A stretch of DNA of 64,000 bases from Candidatus Nanoarchaeia archaeon (lineage in GTDB: Archaea > Nanobdellota > Nanobdellia > SCGC-AAA011-G17 > JACPNG01), in assembly GCA_028713535.1 (NCBI GenBank), contig JAQTOC010000003.1:7556-71555 (forward strand). Reading direction: 5' to 3'. Position 1 is the first letter of the stretch. Every line of letters starts with the position of its first letter. Under the pieces are notes generated by a model. That model had not been told where the DNA came from and made no database searches. It worked only from the letters and a program-made list of their open reading frames with translations. The position numbers were made by a program, and so were the translations under genes. Positions 43,162-58,016 of this stretch are shown one piece after another.

Positions 43162-43680
43162 TTAGGGTCTTACCCAGTTAACCTCGTAGTAAGTTACAGA
43201 ATCTTCTTCATCAACTATCCCAAGTAACAAAGCTTTTTTAGTTGAATGTGCAACCCTGTTTTTTGCAGAAAATTCATACCATGTTAATGTGTCAGCTTCT
43301 GCAATAGGATATACAATCCATTTTGCATGATCCTCTCCTGGACTAACTCCCTTGTCATATACTCTGAAGTCAGCTCCGAACTTTAATGCGGTTTTTACAA
43401 TATATCCTCTCTCTCTTAAATCCTTGAAGACACAGTATCTTATCCAGAAGTTAGGCTCTATTTTTTGTGCTTTTTTGATAAACTCATTTTCCTTAATTTC
43501 TTTGTCTTTGCTGTCAAGAACTTTCATTTTTTGTTGCTGAATTAAAAACAACGCTTCAGACAGACTGTAATGTACTTTTTTGTCTTTTAATTCTCCAAAT
43601 CTTGATTTTTCATACATTTGGTTTGCTAACTCGTTGTTATCTGCAAAAACCCTTTCTCTTGAAAATACAGCGTTGATCAT
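43162..43680 (-). CDS. endA: tRNA-splicing endonuclease (catalytic subunit)
   Basis: 'YCVFKDLRERGYIVKTALKFGADFRVYDKG...HAKWIVYPI' matches EndA catalytic domain (Y, H, K triad). Confidence 0.85.
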   Translation of the reverse strand: MINAVFSRERVFADNNELANQMYEKSRFGELKDKKVHYSLSEALFLIQQQKMKVLDSKDKEIKENEFIKKAQKIEPNFWIRYCVFKDLRERGYIVKTALKFGADFRVYDKGVSPGEDHAKWIVYPIAEADTLTWYEFSAKNRVAHSTKKALLLGIVDEEDSVTYYEVNWVRP

Positions 43681-43729: not shown

Positions 43730-44617
43730 ATGAAAATAACTTTTTTAGGTACAGGTTCGATGGTGCCAACATTGGAAAGGAATCACAGTGCAATCCTGAT
43801 TAGTTATAACAATGAAAATCTTTTGTTTGATTGCGGTGAAGGAACCCAAAAACAGTTTAGAAAAGCGAAAATCTCTCCTGCAAAAATAACAAGGATATTA
43901 CTGACTCACTGGCACGGCGATCATGTGTTTGGCATCCCTGGTTTGCTAACAACAATGTCCTGGTCAAATTATGCAAGGCCATTCGAGATTTACGGGCCAA
44001 AAGGAACTAAAAAACATCTTGAGAATCTTATGAAAGGATTTATCCAGCAGATGGACTTAAAATCAAATATAAAAGAAATAACTTCTGGAAAAGTTCTTGA
44101 AACAAACGAGTTTTATGTTGAGGCATTTCCTTTGTCTCATGGATGCCCTTGCTTGGCTTATAACTTCATAGGAAAAGACAAAAGAAACATCGATATGGGT
44201 TACCTCAAAAAATTTGGCTTGAAAAATAATCCAATCCTGAGAAAGCTTTCACAGGGCAAGGATATTACTTATAACGGAAAAAAAATATCAGCAAAAAAAG
44301 CAACAAGAATAACCAAAGGCAAGAAAATCTCCATCATACTTGATACGAGTTTTAACAAGAACTTAGTTAAAATTGCAAAGAACGCAGATATTTTAATTTG
44401 TGAATCTACCCATTTGTCAGGAACAAAGGAAGCAGCCGGGTATAAGCATCTGACTTCAGAGCAGGCTGCTTTGATAGCTAAAAAATCAAAATCAAAAAAA
44501 TTAATATTGACTCATTTCAGTCAGAGATACAACGATGTAACTCCTTTGGAAAAAGAAGCCAAGAAAATATTCAAAAATACAATTTCAAGCAAGGATTTAA
44601 TGGAAGTTACTGTTTAA
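43730..44617 (+). CDS. rnz: ribonuclease Z (tRNA 3' endonuclease, metallo-beta-lactamase)
   Basis: 'HWHGDHVFG' (HxHxDH) and downstream His/Asp ligands; 295 aa. Confidence 0.9.
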   Translation: MKITFLGTGSMVPTLERNHSAILISYNNENLLFDCGEGTQKQFRKAKISPAKITRILLTHWHGDHVFGIPGLLTTMSWSNYARPFEIYGPKGTKKHLENLMKGFIQQMDLKSNIKEITSGKVLETNEFYVEAFPLSHGCPCLAYNFIGKDKRNIDMGYLKKFGLKNNPILRKLSQGKDITYNGKKISAKKATRITKGKKISIILDTSFNKNLVKIAKNADILICESTHLSGTKEAAGYKHLTSEQAALIAKKSKSKKLILTHFSQRYNDVTPLEKEAKKIFKNTISSKDLMEVTV

Positions 44618-49529: not shown

Positions 49530-52500
49530 TTATAATTTAATGCTTAACTTTTCAGAATATTCTTTTCCGTCTATTTTTACTTTAATCGAGAATGTGTACC
49601 ATCCGCCTGTTTCAAATCTATCTAAATTAATGACTAACTGATTATTGTTTTTTATTTCAACATCAACCTTAAACATGTTTGCCGTAGCTTCAGCAGACTC
49701 AACATCTGTGTTGAGGTCAATTGTTAATTCCTTTCCATTAGAAGAATATTTTTTAATTAGTTTTTCATTGCATTTAGTATTCTCACAGCCAAACACACAT
49801 TCCTGGCTTGTTTTTAATTCATTGCTTTCGCATTTTATGATGCTTTTTTTATCATCGCTGCATTTAAGTCCTCCTTCCTTTAAGCCACTGCATCCATCTT
49901 CTTTTGCTTCCTCAGTTTTTTCAGCAGCAACCTCGCTTTTTTTCTCAAAGACATCGCCATGATCCCCTTCACTCCTGTAATCTTCTTTTCCTTTTCCAGC
50001 TTCAAGATAAATGAATCCGGTCTGGTAATATATTTCTGCTCTAAGCTCACTGTTCTGAACAGAATCCAATAATGCCTGCAATTCTTTTACGCTTTTTGTG
50101 TTTTTAATCTCGCTTAACTTAGTCTCTTTCTCTTCATCAGTCAGGGCAGTTATTCCCTTGTTCCTTAAATTTTCTACCTTTTTCTCTTCAAGATAGGAAG
50201 ATACATTTTCATAATTGCTAAGTGAGTCAAGACTAAAGCTTCTTGTGTCTAGCCAGCAGTCTCCAAGCGCAATCCCGTTGCTGTCTTTTCCGCAGCTTCC
50301 AGCTCTTCTCCAATAATCGTTCTCAGAATTTCCATCTGGATCATTAACAGAACAAATTCTCCTTATGCTGTCGGTGCTTGATCCAACTCCAGTTATGGTG
50401 TCCAGACTTTCTTCAATCTTTGATTTTTCTTCAGGAACACACTCTTCTTCATTTGTAATTTCTTTTGTTGCTTCTTCAGCAACAGCGTCGTCCTGCAGTT
50501 TATTTAATGCATAATCTGTTGTTACCCTTCCAAATCCGCATTCAGTTACCTCATTTATTTCAATGCACACCTCTTCAAAGCCTTCCCCTGCCACAGTATC
50601 AACATTCTTTGTGACATAGCCTCCATATTCTATCTGGCCTTTTGATTCGCTTGTGCTTCCTTCATCCCCAAATGTAACATAATGCCTTCTTCCAGTGCTG
50701 CTGTCTCTTAAATAGACTCTGTAGCTTAACTGTGTTGGTGCATTTGCTTCCTGTGTTGTTCCTGCATATATGTGGAAGAACACATTGTATTCATTTGCTC
50801 CAAATTTCTCACTGTATGTTTTTGAGCTTAATGTTGCTATGTATTGTGGTGGATCTCTTGGATTTACCAGTTTTGTTATAAACTCTCCAAGATTTGGTAT
50901 TGATCCAGTAACAACACCCTTGCATAACTCCATTTTTATCTGGGTTAATTTTGTTGATTTGTAAGATTGATCTACAATTGTTCCATACTCGCTTGTGAAA
51001 AATTCAACACTTTTCAATGCGGTTTCATAGCTGCTTGAGAAGTCTAGGTATTCTCCCCCGCCATCTGTGCTACTGCTGCTAATCATATTTCCATTGAAGA
51101 AATTGCTGATAAATTGGGTTGCTCCTTCTGCTTCTCTCCAGAAAACATCACAAATGTAGATGCTTTGTATTTTGTCGCATAAACCTACACTCTTTCCGTC
51201 TTCTTTTTGTGTTGTCAAGCAATCTTTTCCTGATTGGAATATAGATCTTATGTTCTTTAACCCAGCTAATATTCCTGTTGCACAAACAGGGAGTATGTCT
51301 CCAGAACCTTGTGGCAATACAATAGATCCGATAATGCCGGATCTTACTACATCCTTGACATACCAGTTGCCGCCTGCATTAAATCTTGAGACAGGGCATA
51401 CGATTGGATCGCATACATTGAATAACATTTTGCAGTCAGAGACACTCATCGAATCTGTGCAGTGGCCTATTGCTTTGTTTAGTTCTTTGTTTGCAGCATT
51501 TGTTTCGCAGTTAAACCATTTTCCGTCTTTGCTTTTTATTCTTTGTCCTTGTGTGCAGGTCTTTAATGAGTTTACATATGTCTGATACTTTAATAATTTG
51601 GAGGGTTCTTTTTCCTTTAGGAAACTGCTGCTCTCTAAACTGATGTCATCACCAGTGCATAATTTTCCGTCAGGGCCAACATTGTATGAACTGATTTCTC
51701 CTGCGCTTCCGTCAGCAAGTTGTTTTGTGACTTTTAAGTATACTCCTTTCTCATAAGGAACGCAGTAGGGTTTTCCGTCAGAGTAGAATTCTGCCGCAGC
51801 ATTCTTGTCATAATCTTTTCTTTCCCCTTTGTTGTCAGTTTCTTTTAGTACTAAATAACAGCCATTACTTGATGTGTATAATGAAGAAGCGCCAACAATC
51901 TTATTTAAATTCCCGCTGACATCCACACGATTAAGATCATTTATTGTTTGTACAGTTTTTCCTTCGTTGTCTACAACAAACCCAACCCCCTTTCCATTTT
52001 CAATTACAACCTCTGATATCGAGCCAGTTATTTCTTCGCATCCAACAGGTTTTTTATCTGTATTTGCCTTCCATTCTGACTGTCTTTTCTTGAAAGTCTC
52101 TGAACTTTGTGATTCAAGGCTGCTGTAAACAGTGTCGAATATTTTCTTTTTGTTCTCGTCGCTCTTTATGTCCTCTCCGAATAGGCTTTTAACCTCTGAA
52201 TATATCTCATTCTTTTTCTGCACGCTTTTTATTAAAGTATCCTTTTGTTTTTTTATTGTTTCAAAATATGCCTTTTCTTTTCCGCTGGTTCCATCTGGTT
52301 TATTATTGAGTATTGAGTTTAAGAAGAGATATTCTTTAACTTCATCGCTGTCAACCGTTAGTTCCTTTCCATTTTCATCAATTTTTGCTTCTTTTGCAAG
52401 ATCGCTATAAGCTTGTGTAGAATAAATGTTCCCATCTTTTAATGCATCATTGAAATCCTCTATTTTCTCATCTACCTCATCAATAATATTCTCTGCAAAC

Positions 52501-55481
52501 GCTCCTGTTTCAGTCAAGCACTTATCGTAGCTTTCATAGTATTTTCCGACCTTGCTTACAGACTCCAGATTTATGTTCATGATGCTGTTAGTCTGACAGA
52601 ACTCTTTTATTCCCATAACATTATCGTAGCCATTCATTACAACACTTCTTGCATCAGCTTTGTTCCCCAGCAAGAAGTTCTTGGCTGTTATGAACATGAA
52701 TGTTGCACCGCAACCAATAGTCCACCCCTTTACTATGTCTTCTGTTTTGTTAATAATTCCATTTAAGCTGTCTATAACAGAGTCAAGATTGTCTATATGG
52801 GTATCTAATTCCTCTGTTGTTAAATTAAATAATTTAATTCCCTTGTCAATTGGTATGTTTACATTGAACTCACTTGTGCTGTACACATTTGCTCTCCCAG
52901 GGATTATGGAAATCTGGGCTGCCTTGATTGCTTTAACTTCTTTAAGCTCAACTTCAATCTCCTTGCCAGAACTGTCCTTAATTTTTTCTTCTTCGTTTAT
53001 TTTTAATGTTTTTGAATCATCAGCTTTTGCTGATGGAAAATGATATCCGTTTTTTAATTGTTCAGAATTTTTGTTGTAGTTGCTGTTTCCAAGGAGGGCG
53101 TTTTCTAGCTGGTTTCTCAATTCAATTATTTTTTCGACATAAGTTTCATCTGCTGCTTGTTTTTCGCCGTCACAGGACATTCCATTGTATAATCTCAGTG
53201 CTCTTTCCCAACCCTTGTAATTTTTCCACGTTTCAATATAACTTGTGCAGTATGTGTTGTCCTTTAATCTGTCAACCATTGAGTTGTAGCTTGTTGCATC
53301 TTTGGTTTTTTCATATTTTAATTTTAGGAACTTAACTCCTGCTTTGATGTTTTCCTCAGCATCAAACCTTATATCCTGTTCCTTTGTTTTTTCAGATTTG
53401 CTTAGCTCAGCCAACTGTTCCAGATATTTTTTGTTATCTATCTTATATGCACAGGTTGATTTTTGTCCTTCAAGCTCCTTGTAGATATTTTCATCTTTTA
53501 TCCCTGCCTCATTTGCTGCCCCAGGCATTAACTGCATCAAACCCACTGCGCCGCAATAACCCTCGTTTGTTTTTGATATTGCTTTTGTATCAAATCCGCT
53601 TTCAATAGCAATCAGTGCTTTTACCAGTAATGGATCAACATCATACTCCTTGGAATATTTTAGGATTAAACTGTCATAATCATTTTTTATTGTTCTCCCG
53701 CCTATTTGTGTTGCACTTATTGCAATATCACTTTCTGTCAAAGCAGTTGGGTTTTTGATGTAATCCCCTGTTGTAATAATGATATTCTTGTCATTTATCT
53801 CAACAACCTTGTAGTCTGTTCCCTTTAATTTGGCTGATATCCCATAACTGTCTACTTGGTTGTCAACACTTACTTTTGCAGAAGCTCCAACCTGTTTTTT
53901 TATTGTTTTTAGCTCGATAATTGCTTCTTCTCCGTCAATATCTATGTTTTCTGAGGATGAGACCGTTGTTCCAATTGCATCCTTGAGATATTCTCCGTAC
54001 ATTGGAAGCAAGGCCGGATTTTTTATGTTTCCTAGCTCATCTAAAATCCTGCTCTTGAAAGAGTTGACATCATCCAATTCATTTGCATTTGTTGCTTTTT
54101 TTATTAAGTCCCTGTAAGCTAAGATAATCTGTTCTGTATATCTGTCCCAATCGTCTGCATTAGATATGACATACTCTCTTGCCCTGTTGAAGTTTGCGAT
54201 GGCTTCGCAATCCAAATCAAATGTTAAATCACTTTCAGGGTCTGGATTGCTTTTTGATCCTGAACATGGATTTACATTGCTGTAAGTTTGTTCATTTTTG
54301 TTTATTATTAAATTAATGGTCTTTTCTTCTTTTTTGTTGGTTAGTTTAACCTCTCCAGATTCATCTTCATCTTTTATTTCTTCAACAAACCAGTCTGTCC
54401 CAGATATGTAATTATTTTCAAATGCTTCAATTATGTTTATCTGATCTTCTTTGTATATCTCAAAAATTGCGCTTTTGCCCAACGAGTTAAGTATGCTGTC
54501 AAGCCTAACTCTTATCGTATCTGTTGCAGAGCTGCTGAACAATGAACTAAGTCCGCCCAAAGACATTGCAGATGTAGTCTCGCCAACCTTTAATGTTTGG
54601 AGTCCGCCAACAGAAGTTAATGTATTGTCATAAACCTGGATTGTTGCAGAATCATCCTCTATATTGTCTAGTCTTACATAATAAGCTCCATCTAAGAAAG
54701 AATCTTGGTAAGTTGAATCAATTCCTTCTGCAAAAGAAGTTGCTCCCTGATCTGTTCGTCTGCTTAATTTTTCTGTTAACGAAGTCCAGATATTTCGCAG
54801 CCCCTCAGTAACTGTTCTGGATTCCCTTGACGCATCTCCCGCGAACTCATCTTTGCTCTTCTGGTATATCAATTTTGTTAGTTGTCCATAGTTTAAGGTT
54901 CTGGCAGTACTAAACTCAATCCTTGCACTCAGGTTTAAGTCTATATTCTCTGGGATTTGATCTTCACTGCTGAATTTATTTAGCTCAATAATAACAATCC
55001 CAAGATTGTCTAAATCATTGTATTCCATTGTGCCAAGTGCACTTTTGATAGGAGACAATTGATCTAGATAAAAACTGGTTGGGGGGTAATAATCAATGCT
55101 TTTTATGTATGGATTGTATGATAGTGGGGTTATTATAATGTTATTTATTGTAGGAACTCCGATTGTGGGTTCGCCTGTGGAAATCTGTTCCCCCAGGAAA
55201 CTCCCGAGAGTGTTTCCACTAAGGTAAACAAACACAGGAACATTTCCTTTTGTTAATAAATTGCTGCTTAATACATTTGGTTCATAATCAGTAGGATAAA
55301 CATTTATTGCCTCTCCTAAATTATCATAGTAGCTTAATCCGCTTCTTATCGTGTCTGTGGAAGCATATCTTGAAATTGTCTGGCTGCTTCTTGAGCTTGG
55401 CTGGGTTCTTGTTGTGGCAGCAAATGATACATTGCTAAGTAAGAAAATTACTATCAATGTTATTGCAATAATCTTTTTCAT
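49530..55481 (-). CDS. giant secreted protein (1983 aa) with internal GH23/SLT lytic-transglycosylase-like domain and Cys-rich C-terminal region
   Basis: Sec signal 'SNVSFA|ATT'; SLT motifs 'ALIAIESGFD...GAVGLMQLMPGAA'; >40 Cys in C-terminal half; start overlaps upstream gene's stop (ATGA). Confidence 0.85.
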   Translation of the reverse strand: MKKIIAITLIVIFLLSNVSFAATTRTQPSSRSSQTISRYASTDTIRSGLSYYDNLGEAINVYPTDYEPNVLSSNLLTKGNVPVFVYLSGNTLGSFLGEQISTGEPTIGVPTINNIIITPLSYNPYIKSIDYYPPTSFYLDQLSPIKSALGTMEYNDLDNLGIVIIELNKFSSEDQIPENIDLNLSARIEFSTARTLNYGQLTKLIYQKSKDEFAGDASRESRTVTEGLRNIWTSLTEKLSRRTDQGATSFAEGIDSTYQDSFLDGAYYVRLDNIEDDSATIQVYDNTLTSVGGLQTLKVGETTSAMSLGGLSSLFSSSATDTIRVRLDSILNSLGKSAIFEIYKEDQINIIEAFENNYISGTDWFVEEIKDEDESGEVKLTNKKEEKTINLIINKNEQTYSNVNPCSGSKSNPDPESDLTFDLDCEAIANFNRAREYVISNADDWDRYTEQIILAYRDLIKKATNANELDDVNSFKSRILDELGNIKNPALLPMYGEYLKDAIGTTVSSSENIDIDGEEAIIELKTIKKQVGASAKVSVDNQVDSYGISAKLKGTDYKVVEINDKNIIITTGDYIKNPTALTESDIAISATQIGGRTIKNDYDSLILKYSKEYDVDPLLVKALIAIESGFDTKAISKTNEGYCGAVGLMQLMPGAANEAGIKDENIYKELEGQKSTCAYKIDNKKYLEQLAELSKSEKTKEQDIRFDAEENIKAGVKFLKLKYEKTKDATSYNSMVDRLKDNTYCTSYIETWKNYKGWERALRLYNGMSCDGEKQAADETYVEKIIELRNQLENALLGNSNYNKNSEQLKNGYHFPSAKADDSKTLKINEEEKIKDSSGKEIEVELKEVKAIKAAQISIIPGRANVYSTSEFNVNIPIDKGIKLFNLTTEELDTHIDNLDSVIDSLNGIINKTEDIVKGWTIGCGATFMFITAKNFLLGNKADARSVVMNGYDNVMGIKEFCQTNSIMNINLESVSKVGKYYESYDKCLTETGAFAENIIDEVDEKIEDFNDALKDGNIYSTQAYSDLAKEAKIDENGKELTVDSDEVKEYLFLNSILNNKPDGTSGKEKAYFETIKKQKDTLIKSVQKKNEIYSEVKSLFGEDIKSDENKKKIFDTVYSSLESQSSETFKKRQSEWKANTDKKPVGCEEITGSISEVVIENGKGVGFVVDNEGKTVQTINDLNRVDVSGNLNKIVGASSLYTSSNGCYLVLKETDNKGERKDYDKNAAAEFYSDGKPYCVPYEKGVYLKVTKQLADGSAGEISSYNVGPDGKLCTGDDISLESSSFLKEKEPSKLLKYQTYVNSLKTCTQGQRIKSKDGKWFNCETNAANKELNKAIGHCTDSMSVSDCKMLFNVCDPIVCPVSRFNAGGNWYVKDVVRSGIIGSIVLPQGSGDILPVCATGILAGLKNIRSIFQSGKDCLTTQKEDGKSVGLCDKIQSIYICDVFWREAEGATQFISNFFNGNMISSSSTDGGGEYLDFSSSYETALKSVEFFTSEYGTIVDQSYKSTKLTQIKMELCKGVVTGSIPNLGEFITKLVNPRDPPQYIATLSSKTYSEKFGANEYNVFFHIYAGTTQEANAPTQLSYRVYLRDSSTGRRHYVTFGDEGSTSESKGQIEYGGYVTKNVDTVAGEGFEEVCIEINEVTECGFGRVTTDYALNKLQDDAVAEEATKEITNEEECVPEEKSKIEESLDTITGVGSSTDSIRRICSVNDPDGNSENDYWRRAGSCGKDSNGIALGDCWLDTRSFSLDSLSNYENVSSYLEEKKVENLRNKGITALTDEEKETKLSEIKNTKSVKELQALLDSVQNSELRAEIYYQTGFIYLEAGKGKEDYRSEGDHGDVFEKKSEVAAEKTEEAKEDGCSGLKEGGLKCSDDKKSIIKCESNELKTSQECVFGCENTKCNEKLIKKYSSNGKELTIDLNTDVESAEATANMFKVDVEIKNNNQLVINLDRFETGGWYTFSIKVKIDGKEYSEKLSIKL

Positions 55482-57403
55482 GTTAGTTTTGGATATTCAA
55501 AAAATATATTTTCTGGATATCTTGAAAGTTCATCTGCAAATGCTGCAGGGTCTTCATATATTGTGTCTGAGTTGTCATAAACCGCGTAGAATATTATTTT
55601 GCTTGAACTCTTTAATTCATCCCTGTTTATGCTAAAGCTGAAATCTCCTCCGCCAATAAGATTTTGTTTAAAGCTCTGTTCAGGTATTGTATTCTCTATG
55701 CATTCGCTCTTTGTCTTCCCAAGCAAACCCAAGATCCCATCAGGGATATCAACACATTTTGTGAATTTTCTTTCTGGCATTGTGATTGTTTTCCCTTCTT
55801 CAGACATAACATAAGAGTTTATGCTGTATTCTCCAGGAATTATTTTGATTTTTCCTGTTGGATTGCTTAGGACTGTGTTGTAATTATCACTTTTAATCTC
55901 AAACATAACCTGTTCATCCTCTACCTCTCGTGTTGCTCCTGTATTCTTGTTGATTAATTGTACCTCATAATCTAGGTAGTAATAAGGTTCTAGATAGACT
56001 GTGATTTCATTTTCCCTTGTTGTTGAGAGTATCTGGCTTCCTACTCCAAGGTCCTTGTTCTCTGCGACAATCTCCCCATTGACGCAGCTTGGGAAATAAC
56101 TTGTCATTGTTCCGTCGCTTTCCCCGATGTAGCAGTTGCTTACACCGCAGTTATAAGACACCTGCGCAGGAATTTCTTCAAACGTTTCAATGTCTAGTGT
56201 TCTCACATTGACTTCCTTGTTCCTTGAGTTGCATATTGTGTCCTTGAAGTTTGAAACATTCAAGTTTGTTATTGTGTCCACTCTTGGCTGGTTTTTTTCT
56301 ATAACAACCATCGTGGCAAATTGGAATATATCTCCATCAGCCATCAATGTAACTAAAACCGGATATTTTATATCATACGCAAAGTTGTAATTATTTATGC
56401 AGACCATTCCGGATAGAATTTGATTTATTTCACTCCCACCAGCAGCAGAGCCCTTTGCAATTAATAAGTCTCCTTCCCTTGGCTGGACCTCAATTTCAAA
56501 TGGCCAGGTTTCTAAGTACCTTAAATTTACATTAATATCATATTGTTTCTTTAAAGCAGACCACTCGAAATATTTTTCTGTATTTTCATAATTTGTTCCC
56601 TTTATCTTTATGTTTGGGATGTTTAGTTCTATTATTTTTTTAAGTTTAGTAATTATATCATCTACAAACCATGTTTTTACCCCGCAATTAAACTCAGTTC
56701 CAGAATACGGGATATCCTCATATACAGTTAGCATATCAATTGTTTTTTCCTCAAGATAATATTCTTTGCTTTCATCATCAAAAATTTGCCTTGCTACCTT
56801 GTATAATTCTCCAAGGTTTGAATTTACAGAAGTACTGAACTCATCCAGCTTGTATTCGTTGTCCCCTTTCTTTATGGTAACTGGCATGTCCAAACCAACA
56901 CCTATTTTCTTGTCCTGGATGGTTATGTCCACTCTTTTCTCTCCAGTATGGATAGCATACCCTTGGAAATCTGTGAAATTACTAAGACACAATTCCAATG
57001 CGCTTTCAATGAATAATTTTAAGTCGGATTCCATATCAGTTATTGCAGGATAGTTTGTTTTATCAACATTGTTTGCTTTTTTGTAGTACCAATATGGAAC
57101 TTTTGCGTTTCCTGTGGTTAATGCATTTGAAAATTTATTGAAGTCAGAGGCAGGGATGCTATCTTCTTCAACAACAAGGTAACCACCCTGCAAACCAATA
57201 ATCCTCGACCCAATTAGTGTTGTTCTTGCAAGACAGCCCTCTATGTTGCTTCTTACCGCCTCGACTTCTTCACCACCTTTTTCCCCAGAAATAATCTCTG
57301 TACCCTTTTCTAGGATAGAATCCCTGAAAACAAGGAATATAGCAACAAGTACTACCAATATAATACCGATGATGACAAACAGTGAAACCTGGCCTCTTTT
57401 CAT
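55478..57403 (-). CDS. large surface protein (641 aa) with archaeal class III (prepilin-like) signal peptide
   Basis: N-terminus 'MKRG|QVSLFVIIGIILVVLVAIFLVF' fits [KR]G/A-Q + hydrophobic prepilin-peptidase substrate pattern; remainder beta-rich with Cys pairs. Confidence 0.7.
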   Translation of the reverse strand: MKRGQVSLFVIIGIILVVLVAIFLVFRDSILEKGTEIISGEKGGEEVEAVRSNIEGCLARTTLIGSRIIGLQGGYLVVEEDSIPASDFNKFSNALTTGNAKVPYWYYKKANNVDKTNYPAITDMESDLKLFIESALELCLSNFTDFQGYAIHTGEKRVDITIQDKKIGVGLDMPVTIKKGDNEYKLDEFSTSVNSNLGELYKVARQIFDDESKEYYLEEKTIDMLTVYEDIPYSGTEFNCGVKTWFVDDIITKLKKIIELNIPNIKIKGTNYENTEKYFEWSALKKQYDINVNLRYLETWPFEIEVQPREGDLLIAKGSAAGGSEINQILSGMVCINNYNFAYDIKYPVLVTLMADGDIFQFATMVVIEKNQPRVDTITNLNVSNFKDTICNSRNKEVNVRTLDIETFEEIPAQVSYNCGVSNCYIGESDGTMTSYFPSCVNGEIVAENKDLGVGSQILSTTRENEITVYLEPYYYLDYEVQLINKNTGATREVEDEQVMFEIKSDNYNTVLSNPTGKIKIIPGEYSINSYVMSEEGKTITMPERKFTKCVDIPDGILGLLGKTKSECIENTIPEQSFKQNLIGGGDFSFSINRDELKSSSKIIFYAVYDNSDTIYEDPAAFADELSRYPENIFFEYPKLT

Positions 57404-57723: not shown

Positions 57724-57819
57724 ATGGGCCCGGGGCGAATCGAACGCCCGACCTCCTCCACGTCAAGGAGACGTCATACCTTTGCCCGTTCTTTTTTGGA
57801 GAACTCTAGACCACGGGCC
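57724..57819 (-). tRNA. tRNA-Val (anticodon GAC) with ~23-nt intron in the D-loop region
   Basis: Minus-strand fold: acceptor gggcccg/cgggccc (A73), anticodon arm tctcc-TTGACGT-ggagg, var aggtc, T-arm gggcg-ttcgatt-cgccc; 96 nt = 73-nt mature + 23 nt (ttctccaaaaaagaacgggcaaa) inserted after 'gtctagag'. Confidence 0.7.
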
Positions 57820-57830
57820 CCTTTAAAAAA

Positions 57831-57902
57831 GAGCCCCAGGAGGGACTTGAACCCCCGACCCCCTGATTACAAGTCAGGTGCTCTACCACTGAGCTACTGG
57901 GG
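57831..57902 (-). tRNA. tRNA-Thr (anticodon UGU)
   Basis: Minus-strand: acceptor gccccag/ctggggc, D gctc/gagc, anticodon arm cctga-CTTGTAA-tcagg, T-arm ggggg-ttcaagt-ccctc. Confidence 0.85.
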
Positions 57903-58016
57903 CATAGAGATAACTCATCCTAAGCTTTTTAAAAACATTTCTATTAATACAAATATATACTTAGGATGGAAAAGAGAAGGAATTTCCCTCTCTTATAACT
58001 TGCTTTTGGTTATATA

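Follow-up and report, generated by a model that had tools for sequence, protein, structure and literature searches.

The minus strand of the window (the whole 64-kb stretch of DNA analysed here) most probably carries a functional tRNA-Val(GAC) gene of a DPANN archaeon, interrupted between tRNA nucleotides 15 and 16 by a 24-nt archaeal-type intron whose splicing is predicted from the sequence. The gene is regarded as functional and intron-bearing on the basis of a splicing motif that coincides with the MFE fold of the precursor, a spliced product that is callable as a tRNA, intron-less orthologues at the same locus, recurrence and covariation of the intron class in other Val genes, and the presence of a tRNA-splicing endonuclease, EndA. 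The EndA protein and its neighbours assign the host to the uncultured DPANN archaea that carry the label Nanoarchaeia/Woesearchaeota.

Read on the minus strand, the gene has the sequence GGGCCCG UG GUCU AG-AGUUCUCCAAAAAAGAACGGGCAA-AGGUA UGAC G UCUCC UUGACGU GGAGG AGGUC GGGCG UUCGAUU CGCCC CGGGCCC A, where the window coordinate of precursor position p is 57821-p. The acceptor, anticodon and T-arm segments of the original prediction can all be located in this sequence, and the length of 96 nt and the strand given there are likewise correct; its coordinates, 57724-57819, are one base off. The tRNA features outside the insert are intact, including G18 G19, the G15/C48 pair, the T-loop and A73. The parts of the gene and its upstream neighbourhood are as follows.

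57725..57820, minus strand: whole tRNA-Val(GAC) gene with intron, 96 nt including discriminator A73, called as tRNA-Val after in-silico splicing.
57806..57820, minus strand: 5' exon, tRNA nucleotides 1-15 (acceptor 5' strand, U8 G9, D-stem 5' strand G10-U13, A14, G15).
57782..57805, minus strand: predicted intron AGUUCUCCAAAAAAGAACGGGCAA, 24 nt, position 15/16, placed by the bulge-helix-bulge (BHB) cut rule and by the bases absent from orthologues L081-L083.
57725..57781, minus strand: 3' exon, 57 nt (remaining D-loop, D-stem 3' strand, anticodon arm, variable loop, T-arm, acceptor 3' strand, A73).
57762..57764, minus strand: anticodon GAC, within the 3' exon.
57831..57903, minus strand: tRNA-Thr(UGU), about 11 nt upstream of tRNA-Val, the tandem being kept in relatives.
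57926..57935, minus strand: TTTTTAAAAA box, 22 nt upstream of tRNA-Thr, identical in all four aligned relatives.

The tRNA-Thr and tRNA-Val genes are probably co-transcribed, and a candidate promoter for the tandem, of the archaeal TATA type, is the TTTTTAAAAA box. Between the two genes is a stretch of six T residues at which archaeal transcription could terminate, so that it is not certain that the Val gene is expressed. The tRNA-Val locus of the window contains neither a recombinase nor an integrated element.

With default settings, ARAGORN reports five tRNAs elsewhere in the window and leaves the intact 96-nt gene uncalled. Rfam also misses the gene at the gathering threshold; at a permissive threshold the Rfam tRNA model yields a partial local match to model positions 9-63, with 23.4 bits against a cut-off of 29. 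When given the spliced 72-nt product, ARAGORN at default settings calls tRNA-Val(GAC). A SPLITS-style procedure, in which BHB-like motifs were listed on both strands, spliced in silico and rescanned with ARAGORN, returned tRNA-Val(GAC) as the only tRNA in the 64 kb that appears solely after splicing. The original prediction had also named an intron-less fold of all 96 nt as the result that would count against it; the search for such a fold with ARAGORN and the Rfam covariance model produced no acceptable one. The readings returned were an intron-less, class-II-like 'tRNA-Cys(GCA)', seen in ARAGORN at lowered thresholds only and burdened with two anticodon-stem mismatches and a poor D-arm, and the partial 23.4-bit Rfam match. 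With introns allowed, ARAGORN reports a tRNA-Ser(UGA) i(25,29), which is implausible.

The MFE fold of the 96 nt (-40.9 kcal/mol, z = -2.3 versus shuffles) comprises a central helix H of 4 bp, a 3-nt bulge and an intron hairpin h' of 5 bp, with the following elements.

57808..57811, minus strand: 5' strand of central helix H, identical with the D-stem 5' strand G10 U11 C12 U13 (MFE fold, motif scan).
57784..57787, minus strand: 3' strand of central helix H, intron GGGC (34-37) (MFE fold, motif scan).
57805..57807, minus strand: 5' bulge A14 G15 / A16, predicted 5' splice site after G15 (MFE fold, motif scan, class alignment).
57788..57804, minus strand: intron hairpin h', 5 bp GUUCU/AGAAC (17-21/29-33) with the 7-nt loop CCAAAAA (MFE fold).
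57781..57783, minus strand: predicted 3' splice region A38 A39 / A40, directly after helix H (MFE fold, motif scan).

In both the MFE fold and the motif scan, helix H is exactly 4 bp long (G10-C37, U11.G36, C12-G35, U13.G34), two of its four pairs being G.U, and h', at 5 bp, exceeds the 2-bp minimum for the inner helix of a BHB-type intron. In a strict hBHBh' motif an outer helix of 2 bp or more closes the second bulge, and here h = 0: G9 and G41 are unable to pair, which makes the motif a relaxed HBh' (BHL) and not a strict BHB. The BHB motif to which the original prediction had looked for support of its junctions is thus present, and is the MFE fold, in the relaxed form that lacks an outer helix.

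In BHB splicing, the cut at each site follows nucleotide 2 of the 3-nt bulge. Some related metagenomic Val genes have a canonical 37/38 intron as their second intron, and on these the rule regenerates 7-nt anticodon loops; the motifs of these second introns are strict, and in six of the seven genes examined the 5-bp anticodon stem provides the outer helix. Applied to the window gene, the rule places the cuts at G15|A16 and A39|A40, which takes out 24 nt (57805..57782) and leaves a 72-nt tRNA with the predicted junction GGUCUAG|AGGUAUGAC and the D-loop AGAGGUA, equal in length to the AGUGGUA of orthologue L082. Since A16 and A40 are the same base, the 16/17 register (57804..57781) yields an identical product. 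The D-loop insert of the original prediction is retained in this assignment, and its size is revised from about 23 nt (96 = 73 + 23) to 24 nt plus a 72-nt product at position 15/16. Excision of 23 nt also leaves a tRNA that ARAGORN can call; 24 nt is preferred because the shorter segment does not fit the 4-bp/3-nt geometry of the motif.

The frequency of comparable motifs was estimated with random and shuffled inserts. Random 25-mers of genome composition, put in place of the insert, give a motif of at least this quality, placed so that the D-arm is restored, in 0.8% of cases, and shuffles of the insert itself give one of equal quality in 0.005%. A weaker look-alike, with h' of at least 3 bp, arises in about 5% of random AT-rich inserts.

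Three relatives, L081, L082 and L083, were recovered through the adjacent HerA-like ATPase, to which their proteins are 94, 84 and 80% identical, respectively. All three have the gene order of the window and its tRNA-Thr(UGU)/tRNA-Val(GAC) tandem, and in all three the Val gene is uninterrupted. The four-way alignment shows a clean block of 23-24 additional D-loop bases in the window, together with conservation of the TTTTTAAAAA box and tRNA-Thr throughout and of the downstream flank in L082 and L083. The existence of intron-less orthologues at a syntenic locus shows that close relatives differ here by an insertion or deletion and that the extra bases are no artefact of the alignment. The L081 locus is a remodelled one, with a LAGLIDADG-type ORF that extends into the 3' end of tRNA-Val, an unrelated downstream flank, and Val exons that have diverged more than tRNA-Thr. 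The alignment reveals no sign of rearrangement at the L082 and L083 loci. Among HerA-like homologues of 52-62% identity (P0005, P0007, P0026, P0051, P0054; loci L118-L124) synteny is lost and no tRNAs were found, and an exact-sequence look-up of the window's EndA and HerA-like proteins returned no identical entry.

The class of intron is not confined to the window. A metagenome scan for a Val-type 5' exon followed by an oversized D-loop returned 32 loci that fall into two classes. In class I the predicted cut lies after nucleotide 15, and H5 (GUCU) is followed by the bulge AG|N, a variable hairpin and then mostly AA|N; H3 is GGAY in nine of the 11 other distinct genes, GGAG or GGAA in two (3/4 pairs) and GGGC in the window, and the outer helix of the other class I Val introns measures h = 0-1. 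In class II the predicted cut lies after nucleotide 20, and most members have a 2-bp outer helix. Once the intron is removed, ARAGORN calls tRNA-Val in 24 of the 27 genes with a predicted D-loop intron; the other three have further inserts, and several related Val genes carry two or three.

The 12 distinct class I motifs, namely that of the window and those of 11 further metagenomic Val genes, were aligned over their core. In this alignment 97% of cells are paired, a percentage that is partly circular as the register was set by the same BHB search that it tests; the diversity of the helix sequences is free of this circularity, and all five h' pairs have changed on both sides. None of 500 shuffles matches the observed covariation score or percentage paired, and when the partners are slid by 1-3 columns the pairing falls to 39-61%. 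With the intron-less orthologues on one side and 11 further Val genes with a covarying class intron on the other, the identification of the gene as tRNA-Val(GAC) with a non-canonical D-loop intron, as originally predicted, is upheld.

These data also bear on two other ways of reading the insert. The three closest relatives lack it, weaker look-alike motifs arise in about 5% of random AT-rich inserts and the view of the genome is confined to 64 kb, all of which would suit a disrupted pseudogene, that is, a copy inactivated by a 24-25-nt insertion with a fortuitous BHB-like fold, GUY codons being read by a tRNA elsewhere. Such an origin is improbable for a gene that is otherwise an intact tRNA, whose flanks and promoter box are conserved, whose motif quality is reached in just 0.8% of random inserts and 0.005% of shuffles, and whose register and geometry recur, with compensatory changes, in 11 further distinct Val genes; moreover, each of the three syntenic relatives has one Val(GAC) gene at this locus. 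It is harder still to credit that the 24 nt stay in the mature tRNA, where they would form an enlarged D-loop hairpin. The insert holds the D-stem 5' strand in an alternative helix, the G18 G19/T-loop geometry would be disrupted, and the exact 4-bp/3-nt spacing seen across the class is a requirement of the endonuclease and not of structural expansion.

For the preferred reading, that of a spliced intron, the following route is proposed. In the precursor, G10-U13 would pair with the intron 3' segment GGGC in place of the usual D-stem partner and form the 4-bp central helix. A14-G15-A16 would be bulged and bear the 5' splice site, the intron would fold as a 5-bp hairpin, and the 3' splice site would lie in the AAA straight after the central helix, with no closing outer helix, as in a relaxed HBh'/BHL motif. 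EndA (43162..43680) would cut after G15 and after A39. Exons are generally joined by an RtcB-type ligase, and such an enzyme would join them here, after which the D-stem would refold with U22-C25 to give the 72-nt tRNA with D-loop AGAGGUA. The cleavage itself, the exact cut sites, the ligation and the acceptance by EndA of a motif without an outer helix are what we infer from the motif.

The candidate enzyme is encoded in the same window.

43162..43680, minus strand: EndA tRNA-splicing endonuclease, 172 aa, with N- and C-terminal domains (Pfam PF01974, 2.8e-29; PF02778, 7e-9).

Its catalytic residues Tyr108, His118 and Lys149 are invariant across 83 aligned sequences. The protein is a single subunit in the range of about 170-180 aa that has both domains and the Tyr/His/Lys triad, as expected for an alpha4-type EndA. 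It shares the two-domain fold and catalytic Tyr/His/Lys with the M. jannaschii alpha4 EndA (1a79) and with NEQ205, the N. equitans catalytic subunit, which is its best PDB match (3iey, 5e-36) and the enzyme of highest similarity. The alignment to 1a79 is gap-free over residues 24-172, and over these residues there is no insertion at the L1 (CSL), L2 (ASL) or L3 (N. equitans/ARMAN-2) site. The acidic loop VDEEDS aligns without gaps to VDADGD of M. jannaschii, where NEQ205 has a 2-residue deletion; in the M. jannaschii EndA the acidic L10 loop and the C-terminal strand serve self-assembly. The Tyr-His spacing is 10 in the window EndA and in all 80 fetched relatives, as in M. jannaschii, and 16 in NEQ205. 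Thus the K/R-rich insertion of 6 residues that NEQ205 carries between Tyr and His is missing from the window EndA, whose N-terminal domain is the longer of the two. With NEQ205 it has in common a C-terminal Trp (Trp169); the Trp is shared by the 83 aligned sequences save M. jannaschii, which has Tyr near the C-terminus, and one gap. A phmmer search revealed no second EndA-like ORF in the 64-kb window.

In the literature, alpha4-type EndA is described as accepting strict BHB motifs only (PMC3488258, PMC5829648), and relaxed or D-loop motifs as being cleaved efficiently only by loop-bearing EndAs (PMC3241643, PMC3488258), the N. equitans/ARMAN-2 loop being defined as a K/R-rich insertion between the catalytic Tyr and His (PMC3488258). 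Broad-specificity enzymes are described as typically having the C-terminal Trp that occurs in N. equitans and ARMAN-2 (PMC3488258), and Kaneta et al. reported alpha4-type EndAs in several DPANN lineages, in association with more disrupted tRNA genes (PMC5829648). The window EndA is the presumed splicing enzyme for the tRNA-Val intron. The original prediction had named it as the relevant enzyme, a reasonable choice given that it is a real EndA with both Pfam domains; the broad specificity that was attributed to it is not visible in the sequence and would follow from the literature (PMC5829648, PMC3241643). The missing L1/L2/L3 insertion lowers the claim that the enzyme is of a known broad-specificity type, and not the claim that it cleaves this substrate. 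Its position carries no weight: the tRNA-Val gene had been called near endA, and the two are 14 kb apart, a distance that is meaningless as evidence.

A genuine intron might also be processed by a two-subunit or other endonuclease, for example one with a beta-type partner encoded elsewhere, in place of a homotetramer of the window EndA. This option, to which the similarity to the catalytic subunit of the (alpha-beta)2 enzyme of N. equitans, the C-terminal Trp typical of broad-specificity enzymes and the classical strictness of the alpha4 type (PMC3488258) would point, is rendered unlikely by the full N-terminal domain and the acidic L10-like VDEED, both as in the self-assembling M. jannaschii enzyme and the latter shortened in NEQ205, by the lack of a second EndA-like ORF within the 64 kb, and by the alpha4-type EndAs that accompany more disrupted tRNA genes in several DPANN lineages (Kaneta et al., PMC5829648).

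Non-canonical protein-spliced tRNA introns, those of the D-loop included, are established in Crenarchaeota, Nanoarchaeota and M. kandleri (PMC4090602, PMC5829648, PMC3241643), and for D-loop introns of the HBh'/BHB type splicing has been demonstrated, in vivo or in vitro, in M. kandleri and A. pernix (PMC5829648, PMC3241643). The window intron resembles the known D-loop HBh'/BHL introns in that it is short, lies outside the anticodon loop, has a 4-bp central helix that is partly exonic and 3-nt splice-site bulges, folds in the precursor in competition with the D-arm, and would need EndA. It differs from them in that the visible EndA is without any described specificity loop and the host genome is AT-rich and mesophile-like. 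Position 15/16 is not in the intron position list of the review PMC4090602, nor was it found in the other literature compared. The locus belongs to a known kind of relaxed-BHB intron, to which a Woesearchaeota-type host and position 15/16 are added. The split tRNAs of N. equitans stem from the phylum-level neighbourhood of the window archaeon, and their BHB-like junction is resolved by enzymes of the EndA family; in contrast to those trans-spliced tRNAs, the two halves here lie side by side in a single gene, with a 24-nt cis intron. Two features are mildly unexpected: the occurrence of such an intron together with an EndA that has no described specificity loop, and the difference in intron presence from a relative that is 94% identical in the neighbouring protein.

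The direction of that change, gain or loss, stands at roughly even odds. Parsimony over the four close genomes favours gain, or regain, of the intron on the window's branch; three precise independent losses, in L081, L082 and L083, are less parsimonious than a loss and a regain (two events) or a single gain, and L082 and L083 are without trace of rearrangement. Nearly as plausible is an intron that was ancestral to the DPANN clade and was lost three times, rather than recently gained. The class I contigs L095, L098 and L114 encode homologues of the window's downstream 641-aa and 1983-aa proteins, to which L095 adds the upstream tRNA-Thr, and these shared downstream genes mark them as more distant members of the window's lineage. 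Their intron at the same site supports an ancestral origin, as do the start AGUUCU that is common to the L095 and window introns and the remodelled L081 locus with its LAGLIDADG ORF, foreign downstream flank and diverged Val exons. The same class also contains a subgroup (L103, L105, L109 and others) that is Thorarchaeota-like, judged from one neighbouring protein, which would put the use of the site in at least two archaeal superphyla and argues that it is open to independent hits.

Presence or absence of the intron between such close genomes suggests intron turnover on short time scales. Close genomes that differ in whether a given tRNA gene holds a BHB intron have likewise been encountered in Thermoproteales, where tRNA introns transpose (Fujishima 2010, as related in PMC4090602), and in Caldiarchaeum subterraneum, where the population is heterogeneous in intron content at tRNA-Thr (PMC3293823). 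In contrast to these cases, no second copy of the intron was found here in another tRNA gene: the window holds no donor or sister copy with up to three mismatches allowed, and a short-word blastn search over all fetched loci gave no further copy beyond chance. The two 18-mer matches in the viral contigs L116 and L117 have no tRNA nearby and are ascribed to chance, an 18-nt near-match in L087 lies inside a coding region, and the scan of viral contigs for the Val gene pattern gave 0 matches. The intron-bearing and intron-less alleles, in their near-identical syntenic contexts, form a natural pair for studying the gain and loss of archaeal tRNA introns.

Several extensions are offered jointly and tentatively. 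A Woesearchaeota-type EndA of plain alpha4 appearance, with no L1/L2/L3 insertion, may process 15/16 HBh' introns that have no outer helix, its breadth residing in undescribed features for which the C-terminal Trp is a candidate; the intron may be polymorphic between genomes with 94%-identical neighbour proteins; and Val genes of this kind, with D-loop or multiple introns, may explain the 'missing' tRNA-Val, perhaps also tRNA-Trp, of Nanobdellota. The pairing of an outer-helix-less D-loop intron with an alpha4-like EndA devoid of the known specificity loops provides a test case for the source of substrate breadth in DPANN enzymes. Because default ARAGORN and Rfam miss the gene and intron-mode ARAGORN miscalls it as tRNA-Ser, genomes of the phylum can seem to lack an essential tRNA. 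A 2026 preprint on complete Nanobdellota genomes (bioRxiv 10.64898/2026.05.13.725050) reports that tRNAscan-SE finds no tRNA-Val in 15 of 54 Pacearchaeales and no tRNA-Trp in 30 of 123 Woesearchaeales, and it counts split tRNA genes among the explanations that may apply. Hidden cis-introns are put forward, as a hypothesis only, as a simpler account of the missing tRNA-Val and tRNA-Trp.

The EndA tRNA-splicing endonuclease gene of the window adjoins, in divergent orientation, a gene whose product carries a tRNase Z signature:

43162-43680, minus strand: EndA
43730-44617, plus strand: metallo-beta-lactamase-fold protein with the tRNase Z N-terminal signature (PF13691, 4.8e-8)

As divergently transcribed neighbours, the two genes form a small tRNA-processing gene pair. 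The window EndA and all 80 fetched Woesearchaeota-type homologues (L001-L080) share a Tyr-His spacing of 10 residues, which matches that of the M. jannaschii enzyme. In all of them the C-terminal Trp is conserved and an acidic loop reads VD[DE]E; the loop insertion of N. equitans EndA is present in none.

The tRNA-Val(GAC) gene is separated from tRNA-Thr by a short spacer containing a run of six T residues, and the corresponding spacers of its relatives are likewise T-rich. Two protein genes lie directly downstream of tRNA-Val; the spacer and these genes are located as follows:

57821-57830, minus strand: tRNA-Thr/tRNA-Val spacer, roughly 11 nt
55478-57403, minus strand: 641-aa protein without a Pfam match
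49530-55481, minus strand: 1983-aa protein with a lytic transglycosylase/glucosaminidase region

This arrangement of tRNA-Val followed by the 641-aa and 1983-aa genes is retained in the distant syntenic contigs L095, L098 and L114, at identities down to 30%. The intron-less tRNA-Val of the closest relative, L081, contains, within its 3' end, the terminus of an additional open reading frame that is absent from the window:

L081:2903-3820, minus strand: LAGLIDADG-type homing-endonuclease-like ORF, 305 aa (Pfam PF14528, 7e-13)

Beyond this overlap, the flanking sequence of L081 bears no relationship to that of the window, or to those of L082 and L083, the other two close syntenic relatives. The L081 allele may have been remodelled by a mobile element.

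Val introns of the window's 15/16 class (class I) also occur in a Thorarchaeota-linked group (L103, L105, L109, L092, L096 and L086), on contigs where a neighbouring protein matches one from Thorarchaeota at 73% identity (L105:3726-4976); Asgard as well as DPANN archaea therefore use this site. Many metagenomic Val genes contain two or three inserts, combining the D-loop insert with one at the canonical 37/38 position and/or in the T-loop:

Multi-insert Val loci: L084, L088/L111, L090, L091/L094, L097, L100, L102, L104, L107, L113, L114

Those of L088/L111 and L107 remain uncallable once the D-loop intron is spliced out. With introns allowed, ARAGORN mistook the unspliced window gene (57725-57820) for a tRNA-Ser(UGA) interrupted by a 29-nt intron and assigned several metagenomic homologues wrongly to Gln, Pro, Ala, SeC and other types; such miscalls of Val genes are a concrete annotation hazard. 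A further candidate lies beside a Woesearchaeota EndA:

L057:556-732, plus strand: tRNA-Cys(GCA)-like gene

Its acceptor stem closes only when a segment of ~101 nt near tRNA position 66-70 is taken out, an insert that may represent another hidden intron or a scan artefact.
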